From the IMG/VR virus record IMGVR_UViG_3300032291_002057, positions 14,305 through 78,304 of that record: 64,000 bases of DNA. One strand, written 5' to 3'. The stretch is from a virus. Lineage: Duplodnaviria; Heunggongvirae; Uroviricota; Caudoviricetes. A program made the position numbers and the translations under genes. Below are positions 4,340 to 63,025 of this stretch, piece by piece. Position 1 is the stretch's first letter, and each line of letters starts with the position of its first letter. Under the pieces are notes generated by a model. It saw only the letters and a list, made by a program, of their open reading frames with translations, made no database searches and had not been told where the DNA came from.

Positions 4340-4581
4340 CTAAAGAGGAAGCTAAGGCTTTCATTCGAAGGGTAATGGGCCATGAGAGAAGAACTTTATT
4401 TGACCAAGAGCATGACTACATGCTTACTATTTTTAGATTAATAGATCCTATTGAATCAAGTAATAATCAACTTTCTTGGACTGATGTGTACGAACATGCA
4501 GGAAAAACATACCACGTTCATACTTTTAATGATGGTATTGAAATAGAGGAAATAATAACAAATGATATTCAACAAGATTAA
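4318..4581 (+). CDS. hypothetical protein
   Basis: 87-aa ORF overlapping the previous gene end. Confidence 0.3.
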   Translation: MAHFEKMTKEEAKAFIRRVMGHERRTLFDQEHDYMLTIFRLIDPIESSNNQLSWTDVYEHAGKTYHVHTFNDGIEIEEIITNDIQQD

Positions 4582-5032
4582 AGAATTAAAAGATCAAGGT
4601 AAAACCATTGGTATTACCTTCTCAACGTTTGATATGTTACATGCAGGACATATTGCTATGTTGAGTGAAGCAAAAAATCATTGCGATTATCTTATTGTAG
4701 GATTGCAAACTGATCCTACAATAGATAGACCAGACACTAAAAATAAACCTATTCAAAGTGTAGTAGAAAGACAGATTCAATTAAGTGCTTGTCGCTTTGT
4801 TGATGAAATTGTAGTATATCAAACAGAACAAGACCTAAGAGATTTGATTCTTATTTTACCATTAGATGTTCGCATACTAGGAGTAGAATATCAAAATCAA
4901 GATTTTTCTGGTCGTAAAGAAGGTAGTGACAGAAATATTAAGTGCATATTTAATAGTCGTGACCATTCATTTAGTAGTTCAAGTTTACGTAAACGAGTAG
5001 CAGAAGCTGAAAAAAATAAAGGAGCAAGATGA
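4562..5032 (+). CDS. nucleotidyltransferase of the cytidylyltransferase/HxGH family (sugar-phosphate or NMN adenylyl/cytidylyl-transferase-like)
   Basis: GITFSTFDMLHAGH (G-x-F-D-x-x-H-x-GH) and C-terminal SSSSLRKR (ISST-IR-like) motifs, as in the HldE domain II / TagD / NadD superfamily. Confidence 0.55.
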   Translation: MIFNKIKELKDQGKTIGITFSTFDMLHAGHIAMLSEAKNHCDYLIVGLQTDPTIDRPDTKNKPIQSVVERQIQLSACRFVDEIVVYQTEQDLRDLILILPLDVRILGVEYQNQDFSGRKEGSDRNIKCIFNSRDHSFSSSSLRKRVAEAEKNKGAR

Positions 5033-13029: not shown

Positions 13030-13385
13030 TTCTTATTATTCCTAATATATTGTTCAGCAATCATTACTAATTCTTGTAATTGTTCTACACTCTCGCAGTT
13101 CCAACGGCGTAATGCCTTATTGATTGGGCTGTTAGGGTCTCGTTTAGTTTTAGCACTTGCACGTGACTTTTTCATGCCACTCATACGGGCACAGAATGAT
13201 TTGCGGCGTTTAGCGGCTTTACTACCCTTTTTCAACTTACTAGGTTTAGTAGTAACAGCAGTCTTTAGTTTACTGCCCGGATTCTCTCTACGATAGGCTT
13301 TTACCGCTTTACGGCTCATACCAGAGGTTTTGTCTTTTTTATTGACCTTTTGCCAATCTTCATTTATAATTTCATCTACTCTCAT
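13026..13385 (-). CDS. small highly basic (Lys/Arg-rich) protein, co-transcribed with the 897-aa gene
   Basis: ATGA-type overlap with the downstream gene; 119 aa, K/R-rich (possibly nucleic-acid binding or packaged). Confidence 0.5.
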   Translation of the reverse strand: MRVDEIINEDWQKVNKKDKTSGMSRKAVKAYRRENPGSKLKTAVTTKPSKLKKGSKAAKRRKSFCARMSGMKKSRASAKTKRDPNSPINKALRRWNCESVEQLQELVMIAEQYIRNNKK

Positions 13386-33449: not shown

Positions 33450-33677
33450 ATGGCAGTTGCTGAATTAATGGGTAAAAAGTATATCTTTGAAGATGGTAAT
33501 GCAATTGAAGTTATTCAAGTAAAAAAGACTGATCCGGATAGGGGACATTTAATCACCTATCTGGTTCATCAAGGTGCTAACAACCTGCCACGTAAATTAG
33601 TTATGTCAACCAAAGAATTTAATGATAACTTTGGTCATTTGTTTGATGTTGACTTAACAGAAGATGACATATATTAG
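33450..33677 (+). CDS. hypothetical protein
   Basis: 75-aa ORF. Confidence 0.35.
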   Translation: MAVAELMGKKYIFEDGNAIEVIQVKKTDPDRGHLITYLVHQGANNLPRKLVMSTKEFNDNFGHLFDVDLTEDDIY

Positions 33678-35262
33678 TGGCTACAATAGAATAAATATAA
33701 AGATGTTTAAAAAATTATTTGGATTCTCCAACCTTACCTTATTAGTAGCACTTATATTAAGTACAATTGCCGCATGGTATAGTATCATAGGTTTAACTGC
33801 TATCTTTGCTGGGGCGGTTATACCCATTATTATTATGGGTTCAGCATTAGAACTTGCAAAGATAATCACAACCGTTTGGTTACGTAAGTACTGGACACGG
33901 TGTAACTGGATTATAAAAATGTATCTAGTGCCTGCTGTTATGGCACTAGCAATATTAACCAGCATGGGTATATTTGGATTCTTAAGTAAAGCACACTTAG
34001 ATCAAGGTGTGCCTACCAGTGATATTGCTGCCAAAGTTGCATTGTTTGATGAAAAGATTAAAACAGAACGAGACAATATAGAGACCAGCAGAAAAGCATT
34101 ACAACAAATGGATGCACAAGTTGATCAAATGTTAGGACGCACGGACAATGACAAAGGTGCTGAACGTGCTGTAACTATTCGTAGACAACAACAAAAAGAA
34201 CGAAGTGCCCTGCAAGCTGACATAGCTAAATCTCAAACTACTATTGCTAAATTAAATGAAGAACGAGCACCTATTGCTACCGAGTTACGTAAAGTAGAAG
34301 CCGAAGTAGGACCAATCAAATACATTGCGGCTTTGATATACGGAGATAATCCTGATGCAAATCTATTAGAACGTGCTGTGCGTTGGGTTATCATATTATT
34401 AGTTCTTGTATTTGACCCACTTGCCCTAATGTTAGTGATTGCGGCTAATCAAAGTCGTGAATGGGATAAGGAAGAAGAAAAAGAAAAAGAACTACAAGCA
34501 TTCATAGATAATAGCAAGGAAGTTGCACGTAGATTAGATTCAGGAGAAAGTCTAGAAGGTTTACCTGACGTAACCACAAATTATGAACCTGACGATGGCC
34601 CCTTGACTGACGAGCAAGTTGAACAACTTAAAAAATCAATAGAAGCATTTAAAGAAGAATCGGTACCAGAACCTATCAATTGCTATAAGTGTAATACTGA
34701 ATTGGTAGACGTTCCTAGTATAGGATTAGTTTGTCCAAATAAAGATTGTAAAGATTCTGAACTAGAAGAAGTTGAAGTTCGAGTAGAAGTCACTGAACCC
34801 ACAATCGACCAAGAAATAACAGCAGATTCATCCGTAGTAGTTACTGAAATAGAAACTGACGGTGTGACTACAGTAAAACCTTTTAAAGAATTAGAGGGCG
34901 GATATGTAGTATTTGACGGCAAGCATATGCATCGTGATGTATTGAAGGATTCACACCCAGATTTATTTAAATTAGTAGCAGACTCAGCAAGATCAAGTAA
35001 TACGAGTTTTGGAACTGATTTCCCAAAAACAGCAGAAAAGGGTGATACCTTCGTCAGGGTAGATGTATTACCAAATCGTGTATATAAATTCGACGGTATA
35101 CGTTGGATTGCAGTAAACAAGGAAATATCAACCAGTTACCTTCATGACCAAGAATATATCAAATTCTTGATTAAAATGATTGATAAGGGTGAATATGATG
35201 TTGAATTGTTGTCCGACACTGAAAAACAACAGATAGAAGAATATTTGACCCAAAATCGTTGA
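33664..35262 (+). CDS. membrane protein with N-terminal TM helices, central coiled coil and C-terminal zinc ribbon
   Basis: Hydrophobic helices at aa 20-110 and ~230-250; CYKCN...CPNKDC. Confidence 0.5.
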   Translation: MTYISGYNRINIKMFKKLFGFSNLTLLVALILSTIAAWYSIIGLTAIFAGAVIPIIIMGSALELAKIITTVWLRKYWTRCNWIIKMYLVPAVMALAILTSMGIFGFLSKAHLDQGVPTSDIAAKVALFDEKIKTERDNIETSRKALQQMDAQVDQMLGRTDNDKGAERAVTIRRQQQKERSALQADIAKSQTTIAKLNEERAPIATELRKVEAEVGPIKYIAALIYGDNPDANLLERAVRWVIILLVLVFDPLALMLVIAANQSREWDKEEEKEKELQAFIDNSKEVARRLDSGESLEGLPDVTTNYEPDDGPLTDEQVEQLKKSIEAFKEESVPEPINCYKCNTELVDVPSIGLVCPNKDCKDSELEEVEVRVEVTEPTIDQEITADSSVVVTEIETDGVTTVKPFKELEGGYVVFDGKHMHRDVLKDSHPDLFKLVADSARSSNTSFGTDFPKTAEKGDTFVRVDVLPNRVYKFDGIRWIAVNKEISTSYLHDQEYIKFLIKMIDKGEYDVELLSDTEKQQIEEYLTQNR

Positions 35263-36974: not shown

Positions 36975-38180
36975 ATGACCACTGATTCTAAACTAAACCA
37001 TTGCTCTTTTTGTAATACACATAAAGATAAAGTTAAAAAGCTAATTGTCGGAGATGATGTTGCAATTTGTAGTGACTGTATTGATTTATGCACCCAGCTT
37101 ATAGTTGATGATTCGTCAATTCCAGAAACCGAAACCAAACCAGAAGAAATAAAACACGACCCTTCATCTATTAAAGAATATTTAGATTTGCATGTGATTG
37201 GGCAAGACAGTGCAAAAGCAGTATTAAGCGTTGCTATTGCTAATCACTATAAACGTATTACTCATCCTCCTAAAGATTTAGAAATACAAAAAGGTAATGT
37301 ATTGATAATTGGACCCACTGGATCAGGTAAAACATTACTTGCTAAAACTGTCGCCAAATATCTCAAAGTGCCCTTTGTAGTAGCTGATGCTACGAGTTTG
37401 ACCGAAGCTGGATATGTGGGTGATGACGTTGAAAGTATGATTAGTATGCTAGTAAACGCCGCGGGCGGCGATGCTAAATTAGCTGAACGTGGTATTGTAT
37501 TTGTTGATGAAATTGACAAGATTGCACGTAAAAGTGAAGGATCTAGTATTACCCGTGATGTATCAGGTGAAGGTGTACAGCAAGCACTATTGAAATTAGT
37601 TGAAGGAACAGTATGTCGCATTCCAGCAGGTGGCGGAAGAAAACACCCCGGTGGTGACATGTTAGAAGTTAACACCAAAAATATTTTATTCATTGCAGGA
37701 GGAGCCTTTGTGGGATTGAAAGAAATTATCAACAATCGCACAAACGGAACAAGTATGGGATTTGGTGCTAAGATTAAAGATCAGAATACAGAGGGTGACT
37801 TAACATTAGTTACGCCTGATGACTTAACACGTTTTGGAATGATTCCTGAATTTATTGGACGATTTACAACCACAGTTAGTATTGGTGAACTAAGTAGAGA
37901 AGACCTTAAAAAGGTATTGACAGAAGTAAAAAATAATTACATCCAACAATATCAATATTTGTTGAGTATTGACGATATTGAGTTAACTTTTACAGACGAT
38001 GCACTTGACCAAATTGTAGATAATTGTCTTAAACTAAAAACAGGGGCACGTGGATTGCATACTGAAATTGAAAAAGTGTTGATGCCACACATGTTCAATA
38101 CTCGCAAATACCGTGAAAACAACATTAAAAAGATAAATATCAATCAGGAGCAAGTATTAAAACCAAAAGCAATTTTATGA
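36975..38180 (+). CDS. clpX: ATP-dependent Clp protease ATP-binding subunit ClpX
   Basis: N-terminal zinc-binding domain CSFC...CSDC; Walker A GPTGSGKTLLAKT; near full-length colinear match to ClpX including the IGF-loop region. Confidence 0.9.
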   Translation: MTTDSKLNHCSFCNTHKDKVKKLIVGDDVAICSDCIDLCTQLIVDDSSIPETETKPEEIKHDPSSIKEYLDLHVIGQDSAKAVLSVAIANHYKRITHPPKDLEIQKGNVLIIGPTGSGKTLLAKTVAKYLKVPFVVADATSLTEAGYVGDDVESMISMLVNAAGGDAKLAERGIVFVDEIDKIARKSEGSSITRDVSGEGVQQALLKLVEGTVCRIPAGGGRKHPGGDMLEVNTKNILFIAGGAFVGLKEIINNRTNGTSMGFGAKIKDQNTEGDLTLVTPDDLTRFGMIPEFIGRFTTTVSIGELSREDLKKVLTEVKNNYIQQYQYLLSIDDIELTFTDDALDQIVDNCLKLKTGARGLHTEIEKVLMPHMFNTRKYRENNIKKININQEQVLKPKAIL

Positions 38181-38398
38181 GTATATTAGGAAGACGAGTT
38201 ATAGTTACTGACGGAAACGTTGAAAAAGCCCTACGTAAATTTAAAAAGAAAATTAACGATTTGGGTTTGTTGCAAGAAGTGCGTGACCGTCAGGAATTTG
38301 TAAAACCTACTGTACAAAGAAAAATTGAAAAAGGTCTAGCTAAACGTAGATGGCAAAAATACTTGCGTGATCAAAGTCTTCCCAAGAAACTTTTTTAA
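38177..38398 (+). CDS. rpsU: 30S ribosomal protein S21
   Basis: EKALRKFKKK...LLQEVRDRQEFVKPTVQRK pattern matches the bS21 family; ATGA overlap with clpX. Confidence 0.8.
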   Translation: MSILGRRVIVTDGNVEKALRKFKKKINDLGLLQEVRDRQEFVKPTVQRKIEKGLAKRRWQKYLRDQSLPKKLF

Positions 38399-38501: not shown

Positions 38502-38954
38502 ATGACAAAAACTTTAACCCTTCGTTCCCTTGACATTCCGTCACTACACAAATTTGGAATCGGTTTTGATTCAATGTTTGATGAGTTACACAGAATCCAT
38601 TCTCAACAATCCAACTCAAACTATCCCCCATATAATATCGTCCAACTCAATGAGGACGAATATATGATTAGTGTTGCCGTTGCAGGATTTGGTCTTGAAA
38701 ATCTTTCAATAACAAAAGAGAAAAACTTTTTGATTATTGAAGGTAAAGAGTATAACCAAGAGAGTGAACAAATTGTACCGAACTATCTACACAAAGGTAT
38801 TAGCAACAGAGACTTCCGTCGTGAATTCAAACTTGCAGACCATGTAGAGATAGTAAATGCAAACTTGGAATTAGGTATTCTGAATATTCACTTAAAACGT
38901 GAAGTTCCTGAAGAACAAAAACCCAAGACTATTGCTATTACTTACACTAAATAA
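38502..38954 (+). CDS. ibpA: small heat-shock protein (IbpA/IbpB, Hsp20 family)
   Basis: GFDSMFDELHRI, YPPYNIVQLNEDEYMISVAVAGF, ISNRDFRREFKLAD match IbpA; RBS AGGAGAAAAAA-ATG. Confidence 0.85.
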   Translation: MTKTLTLRSLDIPSLHKFGIGFDSMFDELHRIHSQQSNSNYPPYNIVQLNEDEYMISVAVAGFGLENLSITKEKNFLIIEGKEYNQESEQIVPNYLHKGISNRDFRREFKLADHVEIVNANLELGILNIHLKREVPEEQKPKTIAITYTK

Positions 38955-39016: not shown

Positions 39017-39328
39017 ATGTCAAAAACATCAACTGAAACAAAAATTAGAATTAAACCCAATCTTGCTATCAAAGAACCTCCGTTGTTCAAGATTATCTAC
39101 ATGAATGATAATGTTACTAGTATGGAATTTGTCGTAGGTACGTTGATCGATTATTTTAATTATAATGAAGATACTGCTACTTCTATCACTCATAATATTC
39201 ATGAGGAAGGAAGTGCAATTGTTGCAGTTTTACCCTATGAAATTGCAGAACAAAAAGGCATGGAAGTAACACTTGAAGCACGTAGTCAAGGATTCCCTTT
39301 GCTAGTTAAAGTGGAATCTGAAGCCTAA
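39017..39328 (+). CDS. clpS: ATP-dependent Clp protease adaptor ClpS
   Basis: PPLFKIIYMNDNVTSMEFVVGTL matches the ClpS core (VILLNDDYTPMEFV). Confidence 0.8.
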   Translation: MSKTSTETKIRIKPNLAIKEPPLFKIIYMNDNVTSMEFVVGTLIDYFNYNEDTATSITHNIHEEGSAIVAVLPYEIAEQKGMEVTLEARSQGFPLLVKVESEA

Positions 39329-50056: not shown

Positions 50057-50331
50057 AATATTACACCTTTTACCGAGAGAACAATAATTTTAATGATTTA
50101 TTAAAAGATCCTATTGTTAAAAAAATTGTAGACATTAAGATTCAATGGACTAATTATCTAATGATCGGCATTGAGTCTTATTCAAATGGCAACGATCAAA
50201 ATTTTAGTTATATTACTCTTAAGTATGGCGATGATATGGTTGGTTATCTTTGTAAAGATTTTACACCAATACCTGGTGTAGATTATATTCCCGATAAGAA
50301 TAAGAGTAAATTCAATAAAGTAATTACTTAA
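50044..50331 (+). CDS. hypothetical protein
   Basis: 95-aa ORF. Confidence 0.3.
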   Translation: METMKYYTFYRENNNFNDLLKDPIVKKIVDIKIQWTNYLMIGIESYSNGNDQNFSYITLKYGDDMVGYLCKDFTPIPGVDYIPDKNKSKFNKVIT

Positions 50332-51071
50332 TACAAAGTAGAAAGCAGATATGCTTCCGGTAGTCTTGTTTTAGTATTTTTACTACCTAATAATATTACT
50401 GTTCGTATACCTTGAACGGTATCCATCATCATAACAATACAACCTCCACTTTTTGTTATCCATCCTGTTTTGCTAACAATAAAATGATGTCCGTGTTTTA
50501 CAAGCGAGTTAGTATTATGAAACTCTAAAAACTTCTTTTTATTTGTTTCTACCTTAACACTATTTTTTCCGCTTGAATTTACTATAATGGGATATTTACT
50601 TGCTGCCATTACAAGTTTAACTAAATCTTCGGCTGTGCTAATATTAGACGCAAGCAAACCAGTTGGGTCAGTAAATACGCTAGTATACATATTTAAATAT
50701 TTTGCTTTTTCATTCATAGCTTGTATGCAAGATTTTATACCACCGGGATAATATTCACAAAGCATTTTAGCCGCAGTGTTATCTGATTTTACAATAGCTA
50801 GTTCAATTAAAGTTTTTCTGGTTAGTTTTTTATTATATAAATTTTTAGGGATAGTTTCGGTCAATGATTGATTACTGTCTAAAACAACCATTACAGTCAT
50901 TAACTTAGTTATACTAGCAATAGACCTTATAGTTGAAGTGTTCGTTCCCTCCAACATTTTTCCATTTTCGTCTGCTATTAACCATGCTTGGGCAGTAACA
51001 GAAGGCATTGCGGCATTTACTAAACCAAATGAAAATAGTGATATCAATAATAAGAAAAGATGTTTAATCAT
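50328..51071 (-). CDS. D-alanyl-D-alanine carboxypeptidase (PBP5/S11 serine peptidase family), secreted
   Basis: Signal peptide; S-x-x-K (SITKLM), S-x-N (KSDNTAA) and K-T-G (SKTGWIT) motifs in canonical order. Confidence 0.7.
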   Translation of the reverse strand: MIKHLFLLLISLFSFGLVNAAMPSVTAQAWLIADENGKMLEGTNTSTIRSIASITKLMTVMVVLDSNQSLTETIPKNLYNKKLTRKTLIELAIVKSDNTAAKMLCEYYPGGIKSCIQAMNEKAKYLNMYTSVFTDPTGLLASNISTAEDLVKLVMAASKYPIIVNSSGKNSVKVETNKKKFLEFHNTNSLVKHGHHFIVSKTGWITKSGGCIVMMMDTVQGIRTVILLGSKNTKTRLPEAYLLSTLY

Positions 51072-51081
51072 TATGCAATCC

Positions 51082-51423
51082 TTAGATATTAGGGCCTTTG
51101 GGGTAAGGAATTAAATTCATTTCTATTCCATATCCAATAACGCATGACAATGTATCTTTAGTTGCGATTATAGTCCATGTTTTTGATAATGGATTAACCC
51201 AAACAGTCATTACTGTTCCGGCAGTATCACTTGTTTTTCCATACAAAAAGGGAATTTCTCGAAATGACCCGCTTAATTGTTTTATTAATTTTTCAGTTTC
51301 AAAACAGGGGATATCTGTAACTATAGATTCTACAATAGCGTTTTCTATTGGTTCTTTAGCATGTGTATTATTTGCTAGTAGCCCTATACACACCATCCCA
51401 ATCAGTAGGTAAATTTTGTTCAC
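51082..51423 (-). CDS. small secreted protein
   Basis: Signal peptide MNKIYLLIGMVCIGLLANNTHA; 113 aa; overlaps the cyclase gene end. Confidence 0.45.
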   Translation of the reverse strand: MNKIYLLIGMVCIGLLANNTHAKEPIENAIVESIVTDIPCFETEKLIKQLSGSFREIPFLYGKTSDTAGTVMTVWVNPLSKTWTIIATKDTLSCVIGYGIEMNLIPYPKGPNI

Positions 51424-53425
51424 GTAGTTCTCCTATTCTTTCAATCATCATTTCATAATAATGATCCATTTTACCGTCAAACTCTCCTTTGAGTTTATCA
51501 ATATAGTGTAACGCACTTGTCCACTTTTGTTCACGGTAATAGTCAAGCATTAGGTCATGCAACTCACGTGCCGATAGATACTCTACCATTGCGCCTGCAT
51601 CTGTTTCTAATACTGTATAGATGTTTACACCTTCTTTTTTGCCTTTAACAGCAATACAGTCTAATTCTAACACAAAATATTCGTCTTGTATATACTCTGC
51701 GGTTTTACTGCCCAATACAATTTTCACTCCGTAGGGCTTACTCTGACCTTCCAATCTACTAGCCAAATTAACGCCATCACCCAAACAAGTGTAATCAAAG
51801 CGTTGAATTGATCCCATGTTACCAACGACCACAGTATCGGTATTAATGCCAAGACCCATACCGAAAGCAGGAATACCTTCTGCCGTAACTTCTTTATTAA
51901 ATTCATCTAAACTCCCCATCATTTGTAAACCTGTACGTACAGCATTCTTTGCATGATTAATATCATCTAACGGAGCATTCCAAAATGCCATCTGTGCGTC
52001 ACCAATATACTTATCTAGTGTGCCTTCGTTCTCTATTATTTTAGCAGTCATTGCAGTCATATATCGATTCATAATCTTTGTAAGGCCTTGTACATCTTTG
52101 CCATAGTGTTCGCTGATACTAGTAAAGCCGCGAACATCTGTAAACATAATACTCAATTCACGTGATTCACCGCCAAGTTGCAATAACTTAGGATTCTTTT
52201 GTAATTTCTCAACCATAGCTGGACTCAAGTATGTCCCAAACTGTTTCTTTATTTGTTGCTTTTGTAAGAACTCGCTGATGAACTTGACACCATAGGCGTG
52301 CAGAGAGACCAAGATAATTCCAAGGGTAAACGCAGTACTGTCAAATAACCATAAAAAATTAGAGAACATATAGGCACTACCAAAGACAGCACCAACACAT
52401 AACGCAATAACCGACGCCAATCCAACATAAGTCCACCTTGTTAAAAATAATAATAACACACTTGCAATAGCTATAGCAAGTATTTCTAGTCCATCTGCAT
52501 AATCAGGTCTTTGTATAACTGATCCGTTAATCATTGTTCCGATTACAGCGGCTTGCATATCTTGTGGCCACACACTACCTATACTAGTGGGCACTGGATT
52601 GCCTAATCCTGCGGCTGCTGTACCTACTATCACAATAGCACCCTCAAAGTCTTTTGGCATATTCATTAGACTTACATTTTTGTTTACTTGGCTGTAGTCA
52701 ATCCAAATGCGACCTAAATTGTCTGTAGTTATAGGCCCGAACTTTGGTATACGCATTTTCTCAACGCCATTACTACTCAATTTAACCTGAACAGTAGAAT
52801 CACCTGCGGCTACTCTTAATGTTTCCATTGATAATGATGGGTACACCTTACCATCAACTGTTATGATTAATGGTATTCTGCGATTGACACCGTCTACTTC
52901 AGGTAGAGTACTTACGATACCTACACCTGCAGCATTGTTTTCTAACTGTGGTATGTTAGCTATTAATCCAGGATACTGAACAATTTGATTCATGTGTTCA
53001 GGGCCTAAAATCGCACTACCTGGATTACGAGGTTCGTTGCGTGTTTTATCACTGGGTATGCTTGGAAGCACAACTGGATATTTATTTAAAGTTCGTGCTA
53101 AGATTGGGTCTTGACCCAATCTATCTGAATTAGGCATAAGCACGTTGAAAACAACAAGTCCTGCATTACGTTGATACAGGTCTTCGATAATTTTTGCGTA
53201 CTCGCCTCTTGGTAAAGGCCATTGTCCATACTTAGCTAACGCATCTTCATCAATGTTAACTGTGTAAATGTTGTTAGTTGTTTTTTCTTTGTGTGTTATT
53301 AGTGTGTCAAAATAACGTAATCTAACACTTTCAACAAAGGAAGGGTCTATAGTTCTTACTAATAATACTAAGATTAATGTAAGAAGTGCAGTCCAGGGGC
53401 TTATTATTATTTTTTTAATGTCCAT
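51368..53425 (-). CDS. CHASE2-sensor membrane-anchored class III adenylate/guanylate cyclase
   Basis: N-terminal TM plus periplasmic CHASE2-like region, three central TM helices, C-terminal cyclase domain (FTDVRGFTSISE, YIGDAQMAFWNAP, GLGINTDTVVVGNMGS, LGDGVNLASRLE). Confidence 0.8.
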   Translation of the reverse strand: MDIKKIIISPWTALLTLILVLLVRTIDPSFVESVRLRYFDTLITHKEKTTNNIYTVNIDEDALAKYGQWPLPRGEYAKIIEDLYQRNAGLVVFNVLMPNSDRLGQDPILARTLNKYPVVLPSIPSDKTRNEPRNPGSAILGPEHMNQIVQYPGLIANIPQLENNAAGVGIVSTLPEVDGVNRRIPLIITVDGKVYPSLSMETLRVAAGDSTVQVKLSSNGVEKMRIPKFGPITTDNLGRIWIDYSQVNKNVSLMNMPKDFEGAIVIVGTAAAGLGNPVPTSIGSVWPQDMQAAVIGTMINGSVIQRPDYADGLEILAIAIASVLLLFLTRWTYVGLASVIALCVGAVFGSAYMFSNFLWLFDSTAFTLGIILVSLHAYGVKFISEFLQKQQIKKQFGTYLSPAMVEKLQKNPKLLQLGGESRELSIMFTDVRGFTSISEHYGKDVQGLTKIMNRYMTAMTAKIIENEGTLDKYIGDAQMAFWNAPLDDINHAKNAVRTGLQMMGSLDEFNKEVTAEGIPAFGMGLGINTDTVVVGNMGSIQRFDYTCLGDGVNLASRLEGQSKPYGVKIVLGSKTAEYIQDEYFVLELDCIAVKGKKEGVNIYTVLETDAGAMVEYLSARELHDLMLDYYREQKWTSALHYIDKLKGEFDGKMDHYYEMMIERIGELREQNLPTDWDGVYRATSK

Positions 53426-53428
53426 CTA

Positions 53429-53584
53429 CTATTTAGTAGATTTTGGTTCCTTATTATCTTCATTGTATTTGCTAGGTCCTAATTTCTTTGATTCGTCTAA
53501 TATTTTTTCAGTAGTAGGGCCACGACGGTGACGTGGCAGTTTTACTGGTTCTTTTATTCTAGGCTTTCTGTTAAACCAACTCAT
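53429..53584 (-). CDS. small basic protein (51 aa) translationally coupled to the cyclase, not in the ORF track
   Basis: RBS GGAAGGAAAAAAA-ATG on the minus strand; stop 4 nt before the cyclase ATG; MSWFNRKPRIKEPVKLPRHRRGPTTEKILDESKKLG... Confidence 0.3.
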   Translation of the reverse strand: MSWFNRKPRIKEPVKLPRHRRGPTTEKILDESKKLGPSKYNEDNKEPKSTK

Positions 53585-53598
53585 TTTTTTTCCTTCCG

Positions 53599-53620
53599 TA
53601 AAAAATCCCCTTTCGGGGAA
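53599..53620 (-). terminator. rho-independent terminator (minus strand), possibly bidirectional
   Basis: TCCCC-GAAA-GGGGA followed by TTTTTT on the minus strand. Confidence 0.55.
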
Positions 53621-53622
53621 TA

Positions 53623-53826
53623 TTATTTGTAAAAATATTCATATGCTTTATTTTTAGCTTCCACTTCATCCAACGCAAGCAATGTCACTTGTGCAGTTTT
53701 TCCTTTTATTGTCATGTCAAAAGGAATTGTTCCCGAAAACATAAAATCTTCCGGTAGTTCTACTGTAACTGTATGTTCAGTAAGATTTTTTATTCTATTA
53801 ATTATGTCTTTCATCAATATTGCCAT
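53623..53826 (-). CDS. hypothetical small cytoplasmic protein ending the curli-like operon
   Basis: 67-aa ORF with RBS GGAG on the minus strand. Confidence 0.4.
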   Translation of the reverse strand: MAILMKDIINRIKNLTEHTVTVELPEDFMFSGTIPFDMTIKGKTAQVTLLALDEVEAKNKAYEYFYK

Positions 53827-53849: not shown

Positions 53850-54431
53850 TTAGTTCTTTATGTAATTCCACGTACCTCCGCAACCAAAATTACAATTTAT
53901 CAACATACTTGCAGAATCCGGAGCTGATCCTGTTTGCTGAACGTTCACCGTTGATCCTATTGCTCCGTTTAAGTTAACTTGAAACCATTTATTTGCACCT
54001 ACTCCACCTGATTGAGTAGCGTTTATATTGTTTCCATTATTAGTAGAACCATTCCAATTATCCACATTAAATGTATGACTTCCTACACCACTCTGATTTA
54101 CATTTATGCCATTATTAGATCCATTTAGATTTATAACACTTGCAGTATGATTACCAGTGCCTTGTTGATTGACATTGATGTTATTATAAATTCCTGCATT
54201 TAAAGTAATACTAGTGGTTTTTATTCCTGGATCTTGTTGTGTTACATTGATAGAGTTATTATTCGCATTAATTGCTTTACCCATTACAATACTAGTAATA
54301 TGCTGGTCATCAGTTTGATTAACTGTGATTGTGTTATTGTCACCTATTTGGTCAATATGTACGTTTGGTGATGGTTGTGCAAATGATATAGAACAAAAAA
54401 ATAAAAGAATAATAAATCTCATTTTAATCAC
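53850..54431 (-). CDS. secreted curlin-repeat protein (CsgA/CsgB-like amyloid subunit candidate 2)
   Basis: Sec signal; repeated S/N-x5-Q-x-G-x-G-N-x-A-x3-Q-like units (IDQIGDNNTITVNQ, INVNQQGTGNHTASV, INVNQSGVGSHTFNV, NINATQSGGVGANKW); Asn/Gln/Gly-rich. Confidence 0.65.
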   Translation of the reverse strand: MIKMRFIILLFFCSISFAQPSPNVHIDQIGDNNTITVNQTDDQHITSIVMGKAINANNNSINVTQQDPGIKTTSITLNAGIYNNINVNQQGTGNHTASVINLNGSNNGINVNQSGVGSHTFNVDNWNGSTNNGNNINATQSGGVGANKWFQVNLNGAIGSTVNVQQTGSAPDSASMLINCNFGCGGTWNYIKN

Positions 54432-55533
54432 TCTGCCTTAATGTAATTATTGTATTGCCACCTTGATTTATACGGTTGTTAACTTCAAAACTTCCCTGAA
54501 CCATAGATACTAATGAATTTTGTGTTCGGGGAGTTTGCACACATGCAATGTTGCTCCCTGCATCTTCTCTACATAACTGAACAGACAAATCATCCACAGC
54601 AACTTTGACACCTGTCAATGCATTATAATCCGGTAACAATTTTCCGTCAATAGTATTCAGTACATTCAGTTGCGCTGCCAGTTGCATATTAATTAGATCC
54701 AATACATTAACTAAAAAGTCTTGTTCTAAAAAGTTTTGACTAAGTTTGTCTTGCCACATTTCTTTTTCTATTTTATCTAACTCATTTATTAATTTGTTTT
54801 CAGCAAGAAAGTCTACATCTAACGACCCTGATGCATTTACTCTTACTGTTGATCTTTCTTCTTTAAATTCTTTAGGTGGACTAACAATAATCATGTTATT
54901 AATTTCAATGTCAGTGAGTTTTAAAATTACTGACTTAAGTGAACTACGCGGTGTTTCTACACGTGTTGCTTGAAATGCTTGATTTAGTATAATAGTCCCA
55001 ATTTCATTAGTGATACTGATTTCACCCACTTTACAATCACGGTCAATTACTTTCCAATTAGGAGGACAACTAGGTAGTAATATAACTGTGCTACGACCTA
55101 TTTCATCAACACTAGCAGTAAAATCAGTACCACGAACACTGATTGTAGCGGTTGGAGTGTTAACTGAGACATTTTGAGGAGAGTTTTTAGCAATTTGTCC
55201 ACTAGCATATCTTACAGTCCCTAAAGCTACTTTCATCCCTAATTTACCAACTTTGCTTTTAGGGTCATAAACAAAATCATCAATTACTAATCTACTGTTT
55301 TCAGTAATTTGAACTTTGGTGTCATCATCAAATGTTATCCCTGCTTTGCCTTGAACTGTTCTCACCGCATCGTTCATTTCTACTGCGGTGCCTTTCTTCC
55401 CATCCACGGTCGTCTTCTGTCGTTGTATCGAAGCTGGGTTGTTGGATATCTCTGTTATTGTCCCAATCCCCGCGACGGCGTGCAGAGATATACTTAGCAA
55501 CAATAAACATTTTAGCTGGTTCCATATTTTCAT
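54424..55533 (-). CDS. secreted protein with FecR-like beta-sandwich region, embedded between the two curlin genes
   Basis: Signal peptide; ISVRGTDFTASV resembles the FecR domain core (RGT-x-F). Confidence 0.45.
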   Translation of the reverse strand: MKIWNQLKCLLLLSISLHAVAGIGTITEISNNPASIQRQKTTVDGKKGTAVEMNDAVRTVQGKAGITFDDDTKVQITENSRLVIDDFVYDPKSKVGKLGMKVALGTVRYASGQIAKNSPQNVSVNTPTATISVRGTDFTASVDEIGRSTVILLPSCPPNWKVIDRDCKVGEISITNEIGTIILNQAFQATRVETPRSSLKSVILKLTDIEINNMIIVSPPKEFKEERSTVRVNASGSLDVDFLAENKLINELDKIEKEMWQDKLSQNFLEQDFLVNVLDLINMQLAAQLNVLNTIDGKLLPDYNALTGVKVAVDDLSVQLCREDAGSNIACVQTPRTQNSLVSMVQGSFEVNNRINQGGNTIITLRQSD

Positions 55534-55542
55534 TAATACACC

Positions 55543-56346
55543 TTATTTTGTATTACTGTTTATAGTGAATGTGTTACCGTTACCAGTTGTTTTAATACTA
55601 ACTATACTGTTTCCACTTGTTCCGGCTTGTGTGATATCAAACGTATTATTACTTCCACCTGCACTTCCGTCAACAGTAGTACTATGTCCACTTCCGGTTC
55701 CACTGTCTTGTGTTAACGTAATTTTGTTTCCTGTTCCGTTAGTTGTAATAGAGTTAGTTGCGGCAACTACTGCGGTAGTTGCACCGGCAGTATATGTAAA
55801 CTCATTACCTGCACCACCTGTCATACTAACCGTAGTGCTTGTATTTGAACCAGTAATGCTAGCAAGAACTACTTGATTTACACCACCGTATTGAGTAGTA
55901 TTCAACGTATTCTGTGAACCGTTAATAGTTACATTAGCAGTAGAACCATCTGCTGTGTTGCCACTTGTACCTTGCACAACAGATATTGTGTTATTGTCAC
56001 AAGTTTTACCACCTGATGCATCACAACTAATATTTGCGGTAGAATTATTACCTTGCATTGTATAAGTTAATGAATTATTACTTCCTAAATTACCTGCATT
56101 CAACGCAAGTTTTAACAAGTTACTACTACCTATTTGGTCTATAAGTACAGTGGTGCCATTCCCATATATTCTGGCATCATCATCACTTGCTACCCCAGGA
56201 CCTTTTACGGTATTACCCGCGCCGTCTTGGGTCATAGTGATAGTGCTATTATCACCTATCTGGTCAATATAAATTTTATTATCTGCGGCAAAAGCAGAAA
56301 CCATATATAATGCCATCATTGTTATTATTATTTTTTTCAATGACAT
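55543..56346 (-). CDS. secreted curlin-repeat protein (CsgA/CsgB-like amyloid subunit candidate 1)
   Basis: Sec signal MSLKKIIITMMALYMVSAFAA; repeated IDQIGDNSTITMTQDG / LIDQIGSSN units; G/N/T/S-rich beta-solenoid-like repeats. Confidence 0.6.
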   Translation of the reverse strand: MSLKKIIITMMALYMVSAFAADNKIYIDQIGDNSTITMTQDGAGNTVKGPGVASDDDARIYGNGTTVLIDQIGSSNLLKLALNAGNLGSNNSLTYTMQGNNSTANISCDASGGKTCDNNTISVVQGTSGNTADGSTANVTINGSQNTLNTTQYGGVNQVVLASITGSNTSTTVSMTGGAGNEFTYTAGATTAVVAATNSITTNGTGNKITLTQDSGTGSGHSTTVDGSAGGSNNTFDITQAGTSGNSIVSIKTTGNGNTFTINSNTK

Positions 56347-56349
56347 TTT

Positions 56350-57153
56350 TTATTTTTCCTTTGTGTTAAGTTCAGCGTACTTCCATATGCCTTTACGCTC
56401 TCCTTCCTTTATTAACTCTATCACACTTGCTTCAATGGCACTCTTAACTGCAAATGTTCCGGGCTCATTTATCGTGACCCCTGTTTCAAACTCAAATGCA
56501 TTAGTACCGGCATCTAAAAACTTCAATGCTGAAATACTATCACTTGCGCTTAAAATTCTTTTTTGTACTGTTACTGTTATTAAAACTTCTCCAGTACTTA
56601 CACTAATTGCTCTTAAACTTACAGTTACAATATCTTCACTATATTGTGTCTGTGGCCCTACTCCTAACCAACGAGCAGCCATACCACCTGATTTTACAGA
56701 ACTATCATATCCTATAATTCCACCGTCAAGTATTATACCTGCGAACTTCAATGGTGTTAAAGGTTTTGCATTTGGTCCTTCATATGCTTCACGCATTTGA
56801 CGAATGATAGTGCGCTCACGTGTCAATGCATCAATACTAACTCTTTCTATAACAGTAAACCATTTACCTTTTCCAACATCTTGTAATGCTTTGATTAAGA
56901 ATGTTTCTGCACCTTGTGTAACCGCTGTACTTAAACTTGCTATGTTTGCTTGTGGTCTACGCTGTCCTGTTTTATCAGCAAAACTATAAACTGCTACTGT
57001 CATAGGCGCTGATGCCGGTAACGGCACCAAATCAATATCACGTGCCATTTTTGTAGGCACTATCTCAGGTTCGCTGCCGCCCTTTTCTAAGTAGCTTATA
57101 GCACATCCTGACAATGAAAATATCAAACATAGTAATAAAAATTTTTGTTTCAT
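56350..57153 (-). CDS. csgG: curli production assembly/transport outer-membrane lipoprotein CsgG
   Basis: Lipobox LSGC; colinear similarity to E. coli CsgG: VAVYSFADKTGQ, STAVTQGAETFLIKALQD, GGIIGYDSSVKSGGMAARWLGVGPQTQY, VSLRAISVSTGEVL. Confidence 0.9.
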   Translation of the reverse strand: MKQKFLLLCLIFSLSGCAISYLEKGGSEPEIVPTKMARDIDLVPLPASAPMTVAVYSFADKTGQRRPQANIASLSTAVTQGAETFLIKALQDVGKGKWFTVIERVSIDALTRERTIIRQMREAYEGPNAKPLTPLKFAGIILDGGIIGYDSSVKSGGMAARWLGVGPQTQYSEDIVTVSLRAISVSTGEVLITVTVQKRILSASDSISALKFLDAGTNAFEFETGVTINEPGTFAVKSAIEASVIELIKEGERKGIWKYAELNTKEK

Positions 57154-57602
57154 TAAAATTGAAATTGTCCTAATGGTACTGTTATTTGTGTGCTAGTCCC
57201 TGTAGTATCTGTTACTGTTAGATATACATTGCTAGAATCCTTACTCCAAAAAATAGTATTCCCTTCAAAGTTTAGTGTTCCAGAACTACTACCGCCATTT
57301 GCAAACATAGCAGTGGCTAAGTTTTGACTAATCTGTGCATAGATACGACTTTCTAAGTTATTTAAAAATTTCTGTAAATTCGTGTTTTTTGCATCAGAAG
57401 CTGCCTTATCAATTGCTGCCTGTATAGCATCTTTCATGGCTTTTTTTCTAGTGGATTCTTGATTCTCAATTGTTAACACATGACTGCTATAACCTTGGCC
57501 GTTAAAACTAGGACTTTTAAAACTATAATCAGGCAACGGAGCACTATACACAACACTTGTGCAAGTTAATAACGTCAACAATAATATAGGTTTTGTATCC
57601 AT
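57153..57602 (-). CDS. csgF: curli assembly protein CsgF
   Basis: Signal peptide; mature N-terminus FKSPSFNGQGYS (compare FQFRNPNFGG in E. coli CsgF) and C-terminal TGTSTQITVPLGQFQF. TAATG overlap with csgG, same order as E. coli csgFG. Confidence 0.7.
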   Translation of the reverse strand: MDTKPILLLTLLTCTSVVYSAPLPDYSFKSPSFNGQGYSSHVLTIENQESTRKKAMKDAIQAAIDKAASDAKNTNLQKFLNNLESRIYAQISQNLATAMFANGGSSSGTLNFEGNTIFWSKDSSNVYLTVTDTTGTSTQITVPLGQFQF

Positions 57603-57678
57603 AGTTTTGATAAATATATATAATATTTAGTTGATATATATCAATAAAATATTAGATTACATAACAAAAGGGATAAAT

Positions 57679-57960
57679 ATGGACCAGTTTTTGAAGTTAG
57701 TAGCCGAAGTAGGTTTTCCTATAGCAGCCGCATGCGGTGCAGGATATTTTGTATTTTTAACATTAAAATTTATTCTTGCTGGAGTGACGAGTAGTGTTAA
57801 CGGCATTAAAGGTATTATTGGTGCATTAGATAATCGTGTTAAAACCATGAACCATGATGTTGTACGTATTGATGTTACAGTAAGTAATGCTTTAGGGTTA
57901 AGACCAGACGTTGACCGCATTGCACGTGCTGACGGCAAAAATGACGCAAGGAGAGACTAA
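57679..57960 (+). CDS. small membrane protein (GFPxxAAxGxGY family, paralog 1)
   Basis: RBS AAAAGGGATAAAT-ATG; MDQFLKLVAEVGFPIAAACGAGYFVFL TM segment. Start chosen inside track ORF 57631-57960. Confidence 0.4.
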   Translation: MDQFLKLVAEVGFPIAAACGAGYFVFLTLKFILAGVTSSVNGIKGIIGALDNRVKTMNHDVVRIDVTVSNALGLRPDVDRIARADGKNDARRD

Positions 57961-58154
57961 TGCGGCATTTTGATTACGAGTGGGATTTGAATCCTGATTC
58001 AATTATCTTTGACAAAGAATTAGACACTAATAAATTAGGTTGGAAAATAGGTGAGTACTGGAAATCAGTAGAAGTAGACGGAAGATTAATGTTTAGAAAA
58101 GTAGATAAGTTAGAAGAATTTATATTAAAAGGAGTTGATAATGGAAATAGCTGA
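57960..58154 (+). CDS. hypothetical protein
   Basis: 64-aa ORF, TAATG overlap. Confidence 0.3.
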   Translation: MRHFDYEWDLNPDSIIFDKELDTNKLGWKIGEYWKSVEVDGRLMFRKVDKLEEFILKGVDNGNS

Positions 58155-58479
58155 AATGATAAACAAATATGGATTTCCTGTGATTGCCGCAGGTGGCATG
58201 GGATACTTGATATACTATGTTTGGGAATGGGCTACCAAAGAAATCAAACCTGTTTTAAGTGAGGCAAACACCACTTTAATTGCATTGATTGACCGAATTC
58301 GTATGTTAGATAATGACCTAATTAGGTTACAACAGAAGGTAAATACTACTTTACATTTGCGCGGGAAAATTATAGAATCAGAACGTGTATTAGAAGCACA
58401 TAAAGTAGATAATGAAGCTGAAAATAAATTTAAAAGTGCAATTGATGACAAGAAAACTGCAGGTAGTGGTGAAGGATAA
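58135..58479 (+). CDS. small membrane protein (GFPxxAAxGxGY family, paralog 2) with coiled-coil tail
   Basis: KYGFPVIAAGGMGYLIYYVW parallels paralog 1. Confidence 0.4.
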   Translation: MIMEIAEMINKYGFPVIAAGGMGYLIYYVWEWATKEIKPVLSEANTTLIALIDRIRMLDNDLIRLQQKVNTTLHLRGKIIESERVLEAHKVDNEAENKFKSAIDDKKTAGSGEG

Positions 58480-58559: not shown

Positions 58560-58739
58560 ATGACGAAACCCAATCCCGGACAAGATAATGTCCGATACGA
58601 AGTTATAACCCAAGAAGATGGTGATGATGTATTGTTGCCCATTCCACAAATTTTATTAGATCAAATGGGATGGAAAGAAGGAGACACCATAGATTTTGGG
58701 CTGGATCAAGAAGGTCGTTATATTTTAAAGAAAATCTAA
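58560..58739 (+). CDS. AbrB/MazE-like (swapped-hairpin) small DNA-binding protein, 59 aa, not in the ORF track
   Basis: VLLPIPQILLDQMGWKEGDTIDFGLDQEGRYIL matches the SpoVT/AbrB-MazE beta-hairpin pattern. Confidence 0.35.
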   Translation: MTKPNPGQDNVRYEVITQEDGDDVLLPIPQILLDQMGWKEGDTIDFGLDQEGRYILKKI

Positions 58740-61206: not shown

Positions 61207-61766
61207 TGACTATGCGTGACATTATTACATTATTGGAAGATAAAGCAAAACCCCAAGATATTGAAATCATCCCACTAAATTTCACTCCAAATGAAGTTAG
61301 TCCAGTACTGTCTAAAGATACATTAGAATTACATTACGGAAAACTTGCCCATGGATATGCAGAACGATATAACAAGGGTGAGGGTGACAAAGATTTTAAC
61401 TATGCAGGTGCATTCTTACATAATACATTATTCCCTCAATTCCGTGAAGTTATAAACAATAACAAACCTAATGGTCCTATGTATGGATTTATCAATAAAC
61501 ACTATGGTGATTATGATAACATGAAAAGTGAATTTGAAACTGAAGCTATGAAGATACAAGGCTCAGGATGGATTTACTTAGCTAATGACGGGAAGATAAA
61601 AACAATACCAAACCATCAAGTTCGCAATGATATATTGTTATTGATTGACTGGTGGGAACATGCTTGGATATTAGACTACGGTGCAGATAAAAAGAAGTAT
61701 TTAAAAGAGCAATGGAAAATAATTAACTGGAATGTAATTAATACACGCTGGGGTCGATCATTGTGA
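61206..61766 (+). CDS. Fe/Mn superoxide dismutase-like protein (divergent)
   Basis: LELHYGKLAHGY (compare YHYGKHHQTY), FLHNTLF (compare NHSIFW), GSGWIYL (compare GSGWAWL), DWWEHAWILDY (compare DVWEHAYYLDY). Confidence 0.55.
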   Translation: MTMRDIITLLEDKAKPQDIEIIPLNFTPNEVSPVLSKDTLELHYGKLAHGYAERYNKGEGDKDFNYAGAFLHNTLFPQFREVINNNKPNGPMYGFINKHYGDYDNMKSEFETEAMKIQGSGWIYLANDGKIKTIPNHQVRNDILLLIDWWEHAWILDYGADKKKYLKEQWKIINWNVINTRWGRSL

Positions 61767-63025
61767 GAGCAAAAGAGATACAACCCAGTAAATTAGTAAT
61801 ATTTGATATAGATGATACTTTAGTCCATACACAAACTAAGGTACATGTTATCAAAGACGGCAAAGTAATTAAAAGCCTTAATAGCCACGACTTCACACAC
61901 TACAAACTACAGCCCGAAGAATCATTTGACTTCGGCGATTTTGCCAATGCAGAAGAATTCTTTATCAATGCTAAACCAATCATACCAATGATGAATCAAC
62001 TTAAACGTGATATAGCAACTGGTAATAAGGTTGTTATGGTCACTGCCCGTAGTGATTTTAATGACAAAGAATTGTTTTTAGATACCTTCCGTAAATATGG
62101 AATAGATATGAGTAAAGTCCACGTATATCGTGCAGGCAATATAGTCAGTAAGATTCCTACAGAAGAAAAGAAAAAAATAATTATAAAAAATCTATTAGAT
62201 AAAAATAATTATACAAAAACAATTATGTATGATGATGCTATTCCTAATCTACATGCATTTATGAGTTTAAAGAAAGATTATCCAAACACTAAATTTTATG
62301 CATGGCATGTAAGTTTAGACGGAGAAGCTAGTGAATATAGTAGAACCGATGAAGGTATTATAGAAGCTGAAGAAGACACACCCAACGCTAGAGAAATTTC
62401 AAACACTTTACTAAAAGCCGGTTACAAACAATTAGGAAGCGGTGCAGATTCTACAGTCTGGTCAAAAGACGAGGGCAGTGTTATAAAAATTATTATGCCT
62501 GAAGAGGGTGAAGCTATCACTACGGCAGCTAACACTTTCTATAAGTTTTATGAATTCTGTCAGAAAAATAAAGGTGTTCCCAACTTACCCAAGTTTATAG
62601 ATATAGGTGGAAAACATCATGCTACCTTTGAGATAAACGGCAAAGAATATCTACAAATTGCTATGGAAAGATTATATCCTATTCCAAACAATAGCGTACA
62701 GGAGGCACTAGTGTGGGCATTATCAGATTTTGTTCTTAGTCACACACCTTGGAATAAAGTTATTTCTACAATTAATAACACTGAATATTTTAAAAACTAT
62801 GAAACGGCAAATGTTCAACAAATTGAACAAGCAGTAAAACAAACACTAAGTAATAAACAAGAAAACGAAAAATATCATTATCTGTATGAATTGATGAGAT
62901 TAGTATATGCAACCGGAAGAATAAACAAGGTGGGTTGGGATTTACATACAGAAAACGTTATGATGCGTAAGAATGGTGAATTAGTGATAATTGACCCGTG
63001 GTTTGCAATGAATGAAGGATCATAA
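61763..63025 (+). CDS. fusion of HAD-superfamily phosphatase (N) and protein-kinase-like/phosphotransferase domain (C)
   Basis: N-terminal [12 protein letters not shown] (HAD motif I D-x-D-x-T); C-terminal DLHTENVMM...IIDPWFA resembles the kinase catalytic loop and DFG-equivalent. Confidence 0.5.

Follow-up and report, generated by a model that had tools for sequence, protein, structure and literature searches.

A divergent curli-type secretion module on an uncultured tailed-phage contig, with two candidate fibre subunits and a putative envelope-to-cAMP sensor

What does a phage gain from genes for a curli-type secretion apparatus? Curli machinery of phages occurs widely in marine waters, and what it does is debated: aggregation or 'sibling capture', protection against superinfection, a part in the timing of lysis, and import have all been put forward. 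The question is raised again by the tailed-virus record IMGVR_UViG_3300032291_002057, of which a stretch of 64,000 nucleotides was analysed (hereafter the window, along whose whole length all module coordinates are numbered). On its minus strand lie genes for CsgF, CsgG, two secreted repeat proteins (here Cur1 and Cur2), a FecR-like protein and a membrane adenylate cyclase. The system has been described before, and the module of the window is a further, divergent member of it and not a discovery: marine phages have been known to carry it since 2013, and papers from 2020 and 2022 examined it in detail; the window adds an intact and divergent example and raises no new question by itself. By homology, the module is predicted to comprise a complete type VIII secretion system (T8SS) lacking CsgE, two candidate fibre subunits and a sensor linking the envelope to cyclic AMP (cAMP). 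We consider it probable that it serves as a phage-borne type VIII (curli-type) secretion module making surface fibres on infected cells, and we infer that the subunits would be exported and polymerise there.

The gene order relates the module to that of cultured marine phages. A tblastn search of the phage collection with CsgG gave matches of 42-44% identity in Pelagibacter phage HTVC008M and in four genomes of Methylophilales phage Melnitz; podoviruses of the HTVC023P type also belong among the known carriers of the module. The results showed that the GenBank order in these phages (CsgF, CsgG, curlin-associated protein, FecR-domain protein, second curlin-repeat protein and adenylate/guanylate cyclase; gp014-019 in HTVC008M and gp99-104 in Melnitz) is that of the window, and that the families phrog_35372, phrog_20175, phrog_37870 and phrog_35576 of the pelagiphage-type module are matched by the window at 3e-65 to 2.9e-245. 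The module proteins are 28-44% identical to those of HTVC008M and Melnitz, and megablast of the module against the phage collection gave no match, the similarity being at the protein level only. Zaragoza-Solas et al. (2020) found the cluster to be widespread in pelagimyophages and proposed 'sibling capture' (PMC7029224), and Buchholz et al. (2022) modelled CsgG and CsgF structurally and proposed a role in lysis timing (PMC9004378). Wittmers et al. (2022) described CsgA/B-like genes, FecR and adenylate cyclase in both myo- and podoviruses, reported viral curli proteins at all 65 GOV2.0 ocean stations together with expression in metatranscriptomes, and inferred an alphaproteobacterial origin of the viral module (PMC9599517). 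A sequence-only reading of the window, made without database searches, had held a pore with its own amyloid substrates to be unusual in a phage; given HTVC008M, Melnitz and these three papers, that view is out of date, and the functions it offered (matrix production, superinfection shielding and export) are already proposed in the published work.

The same reading had named five of the genes, csgF to cur2. All five open reading frames (ORFs) were present on the minus strand with coordinates exactly as it gave them, and its gene identifications and viral context were correct; the cyclase, a DD-carboxypeptidase and two small membrane-protein paralogues, which also belong to the block, had been overlooked. 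When the five proteins were compared with the profile hidden Markov models of Pfam, four scored above the curated cut-offs (CsgF, CsgG, Curlin_rpt and FecR). CsgG reached 156 bits against a cut-off of 20.8, carries the lipobox LSGC and showed the long colinear match to E. coli CsgG that had been described for it (phmmer against the PDB, 2.1e-46, residues 3-259). CsgF reached 54.6 bits against a cut-off of 25.8. A long colinear match to E. coli had been described for this protein too, but a single-sequence search found no E. coli CsgF and phmmer against the PDB gave no CsgF match, its likeness lying instead at the level of the Pfam profile and of a conserved N-terminal motif. The signal peptide of CsgF is followed by YSFKSPSFNGQGYSS, which aligns with the mature N-terminus of E. 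coli CsgF (FQFRNPNFGGNPNNG), and the motif F-x-F-[KR]-[NS]-P-x-F-x-G is conserved directly after the leader in 66 homologues. In the E. coli complexes (e.g. 6L7A and 6SI7), the CsgF N-terminal segment sits within the CsgG barrel. Judged by homology, the window CsgF keeps the segment that aligns with the CsgG-binding part of E. coli CsgF.

The constriction of the channel is altered: E. coli Y51/N55/F56 correspond to Q/S/L, with the loop length kept but for a one-residue insertion, and across the CsgG family these positions read [Q/A/S]...[S/N/Q][L/F]. The score against the NCBIfam enterobacterial CsgG equivalog PRK15184 was 172.6 bits and did not reach the cut-off of 505. The altered constriction residues would suit a different use of the pore, in which CsgG, with or without CsgF, acts as a gated outer-membrane channel for lysis timing or envelope permeability and the repeat proteins are vestigial or serve another purpose. 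The pinholin/secretin analogy and structural arguments of Buchholz et al., together with the lack of clumping in infected cultures (PMC9004378), speak for such a channel, as do the peptidoglycan-active DD-carboxypeptidase encoded on the same strand and the small membrane proteins with Gly/Ala-rich hydrophobic segments that are linked to the module. However, conservation of the CsgF N-terminal motif argues against phage CsgF and CsgG having uncoupled, both repeat families keep leaders and invariant curlin ladder residues in more than 100 homologues, and the same module stands in non-viral bacterial chromosomes. It is also general knowledge of holin action that an outer-membrane channel is unable to depolarise the inner membrane. 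Taken together, a role as a pore only appears unlikely.

No CsgE, CsgC or CsgD was found, in agreement with the sequence-only reading, either by Pfam in the block or by phmmer in any ORF of the window, the latter being a weak test with approximate E. coli queries. The lack of a CsgE gate would be in keeping with import, that is, with an ungated CsgG channel admitting larger nutrients, cofactors or siderophores to the periplasm of streamlined hosts during infection, as has been proposed (PMC7029224, PMC9599517). We regard import as improbable, as it leaves the conserved CsgF and the two conserved secreted repeat proteins unexplained, and no transport partner is seen in the block.

Some relatives have a CsgG whose C-terminus is 110-150 residues longer (L151 6444-7583, L004 9959-11101 and L005 9959-11206). 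In L151 this extension, which the window CsgG lacks, terminates in a bacterial SH3 domain (SH3_4, 1.4e-8). A further match to CsgG, at 40% identity, is the unannotated 1,499-bp entry OR851715.1 ('Salmonella phage S.Kent 1-2-1'), which may be a bacterial csgG fragment filed as phage and is too short to provide phage context.

Cur1 and Cur2 carry cleavable leaders, and both begin with the conserved unit IDQIGDNxTIT followed by several CsgA-like φxφxQxGxG[N/H] units; the repeat units that the sequence-only reading had quoted, IDQIGDNxTIT and INVNQxGxG, are both present. Its claim of two curlin-repeat proteins held in full for Cur1, which passed the Curlin_rpt cut-off (E 7.2e-10, 39.1 bits against 20.7, in three stretches), and in part for Cur2, which alone stayed below it (E 0.019, 15.4 bits) and is recognised at the level of the family profile only. 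Database searches yielded 200 homologues of Cur1 and 156 of Cur2, most of the latter with a precomputed PF07012 (Curlin_rpt) match, and the invariant columns of both family alignments are the Q, G and N ladder positions. Against the solved Pontibacter curli subunit 8C50, the family profiles scored 8.1e-24 (Cur1) and 2.9e-14 (Cur2, with a profile built from 60 homologues), and the Cur1 profile matched the E. coli CsgA fibril 8ENQ at 1.5e-5. AlphaFold2 models of Cur1 and Cur2 (predicted local distance difference test scores 83.0 and 82.8) were all-β with regular strand-turn-strand pairs, and solved curli CsgA was the best structural match of these predicted β-solenoids, at a high root-mean-square deviation (8.8-10.8 Å) and with SufB/D-type β-helices scoring close behind. 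The predicted fold supports a curlin assignment, and the sequence profiles decide it. The leaders, the position inside the csg operon and the matches to curlin profiles set both proteins apart from ordinary tail-fibre β-helices. A family-invariant cysteine pair (C180 and C185) stands in a short C-terminal loop (CNFGC) of Cur2, and Cur1 has cysteines at C108 and C116; E. coli CsgA has no cysteine.

In one relative (L152, ENA contig k141_1528869, 293 kb), the second curlin slot is occupied by a secreted PA14-curlin fusion (11904-13265), with an N-terminal PA14 domain (3.6e-12), Curlin_rpt (2.2e-4) and then a Cur2-type C-terminal cap with the Cys pair. This predicted architecture resembles an adhesin-like fibre subunit and points to adhesion.

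A secreted FecR-like protein had been placed between the two repeat genes, and the Pfam search bore this out. The FecR domain spans residues 57-151; the C-terminal 200 residues gave no family match, and the FecR family profile gave no sequence match in the PDB. The cyclase consists, from the N-terminus, of a transmembrane segment, a periplasmic CHASE2 sensor, more transmembrane segments, a class III cyclase domain and a helical extension of about 80 residues. The key residues are readable in the motifs FTDVRGFT and IGDA (Asp), DKYIGD (Lys), FDY (Asp) and VNLASR (Asn/Arg), which we take, from general knowledge of class III cyclases, to be the metal-binding Asp residues, the ATP-specifying Lys and Asp, and the Asn/Arg pair. 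The best PDB match was a bacteriophytochrome/adenylate cyclase fusion chain (6fht_A, 2.6e-34), within its adenylate cyclase domain. These features identify the protein as a class III adenylate cyclase with a CHASE2 sensor, with catalysis predicted. In bacterial loci, and in several phage loci without cur2, the FecR and cyclase genes directly adjoin or overlap each other, so that Cur2 looks like an insertion into a coupled pair. The pairing of a FecR-domain periplasmic protein with a CHASE2 sensor kinase has been described for an operon that regulates biofilm in Burkholderia (PMC5192318).

This coupling would fit a module centred on signalling, in which the FecR-like protein and the CHASE2 cyclase raise cAMP on an envelope or external cue and reprogramme host metabolism, with the T8SS supplying or modulating the cue. 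No large protein of the block is conserved better than the cyclase (38-73% identity across loci with full-length matches; phrog E 2.9e-245), its catalytic residues are intact, and small proteins resembling its C-terminus precede csgF in podovirus-type loci. Nevertheless, some podovirus modules without a cyclase keep CsgF, CsgG, a curlin gene and FecR (PMC9599517), no cAMP receptor was found in the window (a weak phmmer test with an approximate query), and the constant retention of CsgF, CsgG and the substrates is left unexplained. A purpose centred on signalling is unlikely to much the same degree as one centred on the pore.

The small proteins resembling the cyclase C-terminus were seen in L015 (9132-9482), L049 (2281-2598) and about 20 other IMG/VR loci, where proteins of 100-130 residues lie just upstream of csgF and resemble, at E 1e-9 to 1e-15, cyclase residues 567-670, which cover the end of the catalytic domain and the helical extension at the C-terminus. 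Most of the loci concerned lack the pair of phrog_18771 proteins described below, and the window has no separate copy.

Fibre formation on infected cells is the reading favoured here because every component is conserved, because the CsgF-CsgG interface motif is conserved, because a relative has a PA14-curlin fusion in the second subunit slot and because a chromosomal counterpart exists in bacteria. On this reading, a Gram-negative host would be infected and the module proteins would be exported via its Sec and Lol systems. CsgG would form the outer-membrane channel and CsgF would cap it; Cur1 and Cur2 would cross unfolded and polymerise into curli-like fibres, which could change the surface of the infected cell so that it adheres or aggregates, or so that competing phages are excluded. 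The state of the envelope or of the extracellular surroundings would be sensed by the FecR-like protein and the CHASE2 domain and converted into cAMP, which would feed back on host or phage gene expression. Bacteria of the Hyphomonadales/Caulobacteraceae type show the same gene order, and the whole module would have passed between them and phages in one piece. Several points weigh against fibres. Neither cytograms nor transmission electron microscopy of Melnitz-infected cultures showed clumping (PMC9004378). The window CsgG lacks the aromatic residues that line the E. coli constriction (Y51 to Q, F56 to L), Cur2 alone misses the Pfam cut-off, and neither a CsgE-like adaptor nor a CsgC-like chaperone was found by Pfam on the block or by the weak phmmer search of window ORFs. 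A terminator-like hairpin lies between cur2 and the cyclase gene, and phmmer, as a weak test with an approximate E. coli CRP query, found no CRP-like ORF in the window, the hits being noise only.

Table 1. Features of the module and its immediate surroundings in the window
Feature	Coordinates	Strand	Description
csgF	57153..57602	-	secreted CsgF-like protein, 149 residues; Pfam CsgF 1.7e-14; phrog_35372 3e-65
csgG	56350..57153	-	outer-membrane lipoprotein channel subunit (by homology), 267 residues; Pfam CsgG 1.1e-45
cur1	55543..56346	-	secreted curlin-repeat protein, 267 residues; predicted β-solenoid, candidate fibre subunit
FecR-like	54424..55533	-	secreted (periplasmic) protein, 369 residues; Pfam FecR 2.3e-10; phrog_37870 2.2e-126
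cur2	53850..54431	-	second secreted curlin-like repeat protein; 193 residues from GTG, 190 residues from ATG at 54422
small ORF	53623..53826	-	67 residues; no family match; only in near-identical contig L003
terminator-like hairpin	53606..53619	-	TCCCCGAAAGGGGA then T-run
small basic ORF	53429..53584	-	51 residues; weak homologues just after csgG in four IMG/VR loci
membrane adenylate cyclase	51368..53425	-	685 residues; Pfam CHASE2 3.5e-38, Guanylate_cyc 7e-19; phrog_35576 2.9e-245
small ORF	51082..51423	-	113 residues as listed; signal-peptide-like N-terminus; overlaps cyclase gene end by 56 nt
DD-carboxypeptidase	50328..51071	-	secreted PBP5-type, 247 residues; Pfam Peptidase_S11 2.3e-33
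up1	57679..57960	+	93 residues; phrog_18771 4e-35; divergent from csgF
up2	57960..58154	+	64-residue ORF between up1 and up3; kept in a subset of loci
up3	58135..58479	+	114-residue paralogue of up1; phrog_18771 1e-30
palindrome	57631..57644		perfect 14 bp, TTGATATATATCAA; in divergent csgF/up1 region

The intergenic gaps from csgF to the cyclase gene range from -8 to +38 nt, an operon-like packing (Table 1). CsgF, Cur1, the FecR-like protein, Cur2 and the peptidase have N-terminal hydrophobic leaders. The hairpin may divide a csgF-to-cur2 unit from a cyclase unit, and membership of the ORF at the cyclase gene end in the block is uncertain, as this ORF is poorly conserved. The 76-bp divergent region between csgF and up1 is AT-rich, and its palindrome, the sole exact copy of TTGATATATATCAA within the window, might act as an operator or promoter element for both genes, as it overlies -35-like hexamers on either strand. 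No copy of the T4 late-promoter motif TATAAATA lies close to the block, and the window as a whole shows no enrichment for it; a σ70-like promoter scan performed no better than on shuffled sequence.

The DD-carboxypeptidase carries the motifs SxxK (SITK), SDN and KTG and follows the cyclase gene, in which the window differs from the pelagiphage module; the same position is found in L005, L007, L027-L030, L032 and L151. On the other side of the module, up1 combines a hydrophobic N-terminal segment rich in Gly and Ala with a helical C-terminal part (ALDNRVKTMNHDVVRID), and BLASTP at 3e-11 identified it as a paralogue of up3. A phrog_18771 pair of small membrane proteins also adjoins csgF in HTVC008M and Melnitz, where these proteins are 44-63% identical to those of the window, although the pair is divergent from csgF in the window and co-directional in the pelagiphage module. 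Within the phage collection, phrog_18771 is confined to six HTVC008M/Melnitz records, all of which also have CsgG. In a reverse linkage test, 79 IMG/VR loci were fetched by alignment of phrog_18771 proteins. The result showed that 29 of the 34 loci of at least 18 kb have CsgG; in the remaining five, where the module runs off the fetched end, the cyclase is present, accompanied in four cases by FecR and/or cur2. The phrog_18771 pair is tightly linked to the module in the related viral (myovirus-type) contigs examined. Its position varies: the pair lies upstream of csgF and reads in the same direction in some loci, diverges from csgF in others, including the window, and in still others stands beyond the cyclase gene in convergent orientation. 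The phrog_18771 proteins matched no Pfam family. A relationship of up1 and up3 to the cyclase or to the small cyclase-C-terminus-like ORFs was rejected, as no resemblance was seen. The pair may correspond to the 'histidine kinases' noted before csgF by Wittmers et al. Downstream of the pair lie a 59-residue ORF (58560-58739) with a sub-threshold MazE/AbrB-like match (E 0.0013) and a 420-residue ORF (61763-63025) with polynucleotide-kinase-like and protein-kinase-like PHROG matches.

The surroundings of the module are those of a phage. The window encodes an ATP-dependent ligase, a FEN-like exonuclease, an endonuclease, a dCMP deaminase and a QueE-like protein. Its G+C content is uniform (33-40%), with that of the module equal to the window mean (36%), and an independent Logan assembly contig is identical across the module junctions; the exact CsgG protein is listed on a second assembly contig, of the 50-200 kb size class. 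The same module is held by 64 IMG/VR contigs with CsgG at 49-73% identity; of the 22 informative IMG/VR loci, which have enough flank, 20 have retained CsgF, CsgG, Cur1, FecR and a cyclase of full length, with a colinear order in 18. One might still suppose that the segment comes from a bacterium, flanks a prophage or was assembled as a chimera, or that its repeat proteins are tail-fibre β-helices after all, and the window does lack a recognised virion gene. But the module stands beside the same phrog_18771 genes in cultured lytic phages, 79 more contigs (phrog_18771 query) join the 64 found with CsgG, and the best bacterial CsgG among the GTDB species representatives is only 41-51% identical to that of the window. 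With the uniform G+C content, the Logan contig and the leaders, operon position and curlin matches of the repeat proteins, this makes a bacterial or chimeric origin, or a tail-fibre identity, very unlikely.

No recognised virion or core replication gene permitting phage placement was found in the window. Homologues of S21 (38177-38398), Hsp20 (38502-38954) and ClpS (39017-39328) stand in a row and match genes with those Pfam families on L152 and L151; S21 and Hsp20 also match Melnitz. Scans of the window for tRNA, tmRNA and Rfam families found nothing, so the tmRNA and riboswitch context invoked for Melnitz is absent here. The window and the complete Melnitz genome have only the module, the phrog_18771 pair and four ORFs in common, namely S21, Hsp20, a weak FEN-like match and one hypothetical protein. 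More is shared with the 293-kb contig L152, including ORF 33664-35262 (51%), ClpS (60%) and ORF 4562-5032 (78%). The module is also found on the 346-kb ENA contig L151 and on IMG/VR contigs of 349, 285, 278, 259 and 202 kb. The closest relatives of the window are thus uncultured contigs, some of 200-350 kb, whereas published genomes of the T4-like pelagimyophages measure 132-164 kb; the phage behind the window probably belongs to a lineage of larger phages distinct from the cultured pelagiphages. No paper linking jumbo phages with curli genes was found in the open-access literature. The N-terminal half of the 532-residue ORF 33664-35262, which has no PHROG match, is shared with Pelagibacter phage Mosig (46%) and with the jumbo phages Xanthomonas XacN1 and Xoo-sp13, Stenotrophomonas CM1 and Salicola SCTP-2 (28-34%).

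The bacterial search covered one genome per species (GTDB), and 80 bacterial CsgG loci were examined. Three of them, L071 (a 397-kb contig of a Henriciella metagenome-assembled genome, MAG) and L076 and L079 (Caulobacteraceae MAGs), carry csgF, csgG, the gene(s) for repeat protein(s), FecR and CHASE2 cyclase colinear with the window. Their CsgF, CsgG, FecR and cyclase are 33-51% identical to the window counterparts and their repeat protein 28-31%, and their G+C content is 52-57%, compared with 36% in the window. The module has an ordinary chromosomal setting there: where flanks were scanned, in the Henriciella MAG and in one of the two from Caulobacteraceae, its neighbours are TonB-receptor, FAA-hydrolase, acyl-CoA dehydrogenase, amidohydrolase and cytochrome genes. 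The DD-carboxypeptidase had no match in the fetched flanks of these three loci, and the fetched flanks of the bacterial module loci held no phrog_18771 pair. In a neighbour-joining tree of 139 CsgG sequences with 200 bootstraps, the three bacterial CsgG and all phage CsgG formed one clade (200/200), and the three grouped with the phage-like contig L140 in 162/200. A flavobacterial sister group to this phage-plus-Caulobacterales clade is not claimed, its support being weak (108/200). The tree does not fix the direction of transfer, and an exchange of the module between phage and bacteria is proposed. These loci refine the published statements that FecR and cyclase do not occur within bacterial T8SS operons and that the origin of the module is 'mysterious'.

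Two apparent bacterial hits were set aside. The proteins of L068 (JADHSL010000125.1, a 'Pirellulales' MAG) are about 95% identical to those of the IMG/VR contig L062, and L140 (JAAXIF010000105.1, a 121-kb contig of a 'Sphingobacteriales' MAG) has 36% G+C and a phrog_18771 pair by the module. Both are probably mis-binned phage contigs in GTDB representatives.

A wider view may tentatively be taken, in which the T8SS pore, the two fibre subunits, the FecR/CHASE2 sensor, the DD-carboxypeptidase and the two phage-specific membrane proteins form a larger, co-inherited envelope-remodelling unit of large and possibly jumbo phages. Such a unit, with its second fibre slot sometimes filled by a PA14-lectin/curlin fusion, would have moved as a block between phages and bacteria of the Hyphomonadales/Caulobacteraceae type and would turn infected planktonic cells adhesive and fibre-coated under control of the sensor. 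A cellular counterpart with FecR and cyclase in relatives of culturable, genetically tractable bacteria makes the question of function more testable, and the membrane-protein pair travelling with the module in myovirus-type contigs and the PA14-curlin fusions in relatives are further leads.

Among known cellular systems, the holdfast anchor of Caulobacter (HfaA/HfaB/HfaD) includes a CsgG-family protein, HfaB, from the same Hyphomonadales/Caulobacteraceae group of bacteria. The window module was rejected as an Hfa system, given that its CsgG scored 29.7 bits with the HfaB equivalog model against a cut-off of 300 and that it has CsgF. The csgBAC-csgDEFG curli system of E. coli and Salmonella shares with the window the CsgG lipoprotein channel, a CsgF with a related N-terminal segment and secreted Q/N/G-ladder subunits of strand-turn-strand β-solenoid fold (predicted in the window). 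It differs in having two divergent operons instead of one and in CsgE, CsgC and CsgD, which were not found in the window by the searches described above; the window does not keep the Y51/F56 constriction, misses the NCBIfam CsgG equivalog cut-off and adds the FecR-like and cyclase genes. For these added genes, the closest described arrangement is Burkholderia 'BiofilmReg', a matrix/biofilm locus in which, as in the window, a FecR-domain gene (FecR/LysM periplasmic protein) stands beside a CHASE2 sensor (PMC5192318). The output of 'BiofilmReg', which has no T8SS genes, is a histidine kinase with a response regulator, whereas the output domain in the window is a predicted class III adenylate cyclase joined to a curli-type secretion module.

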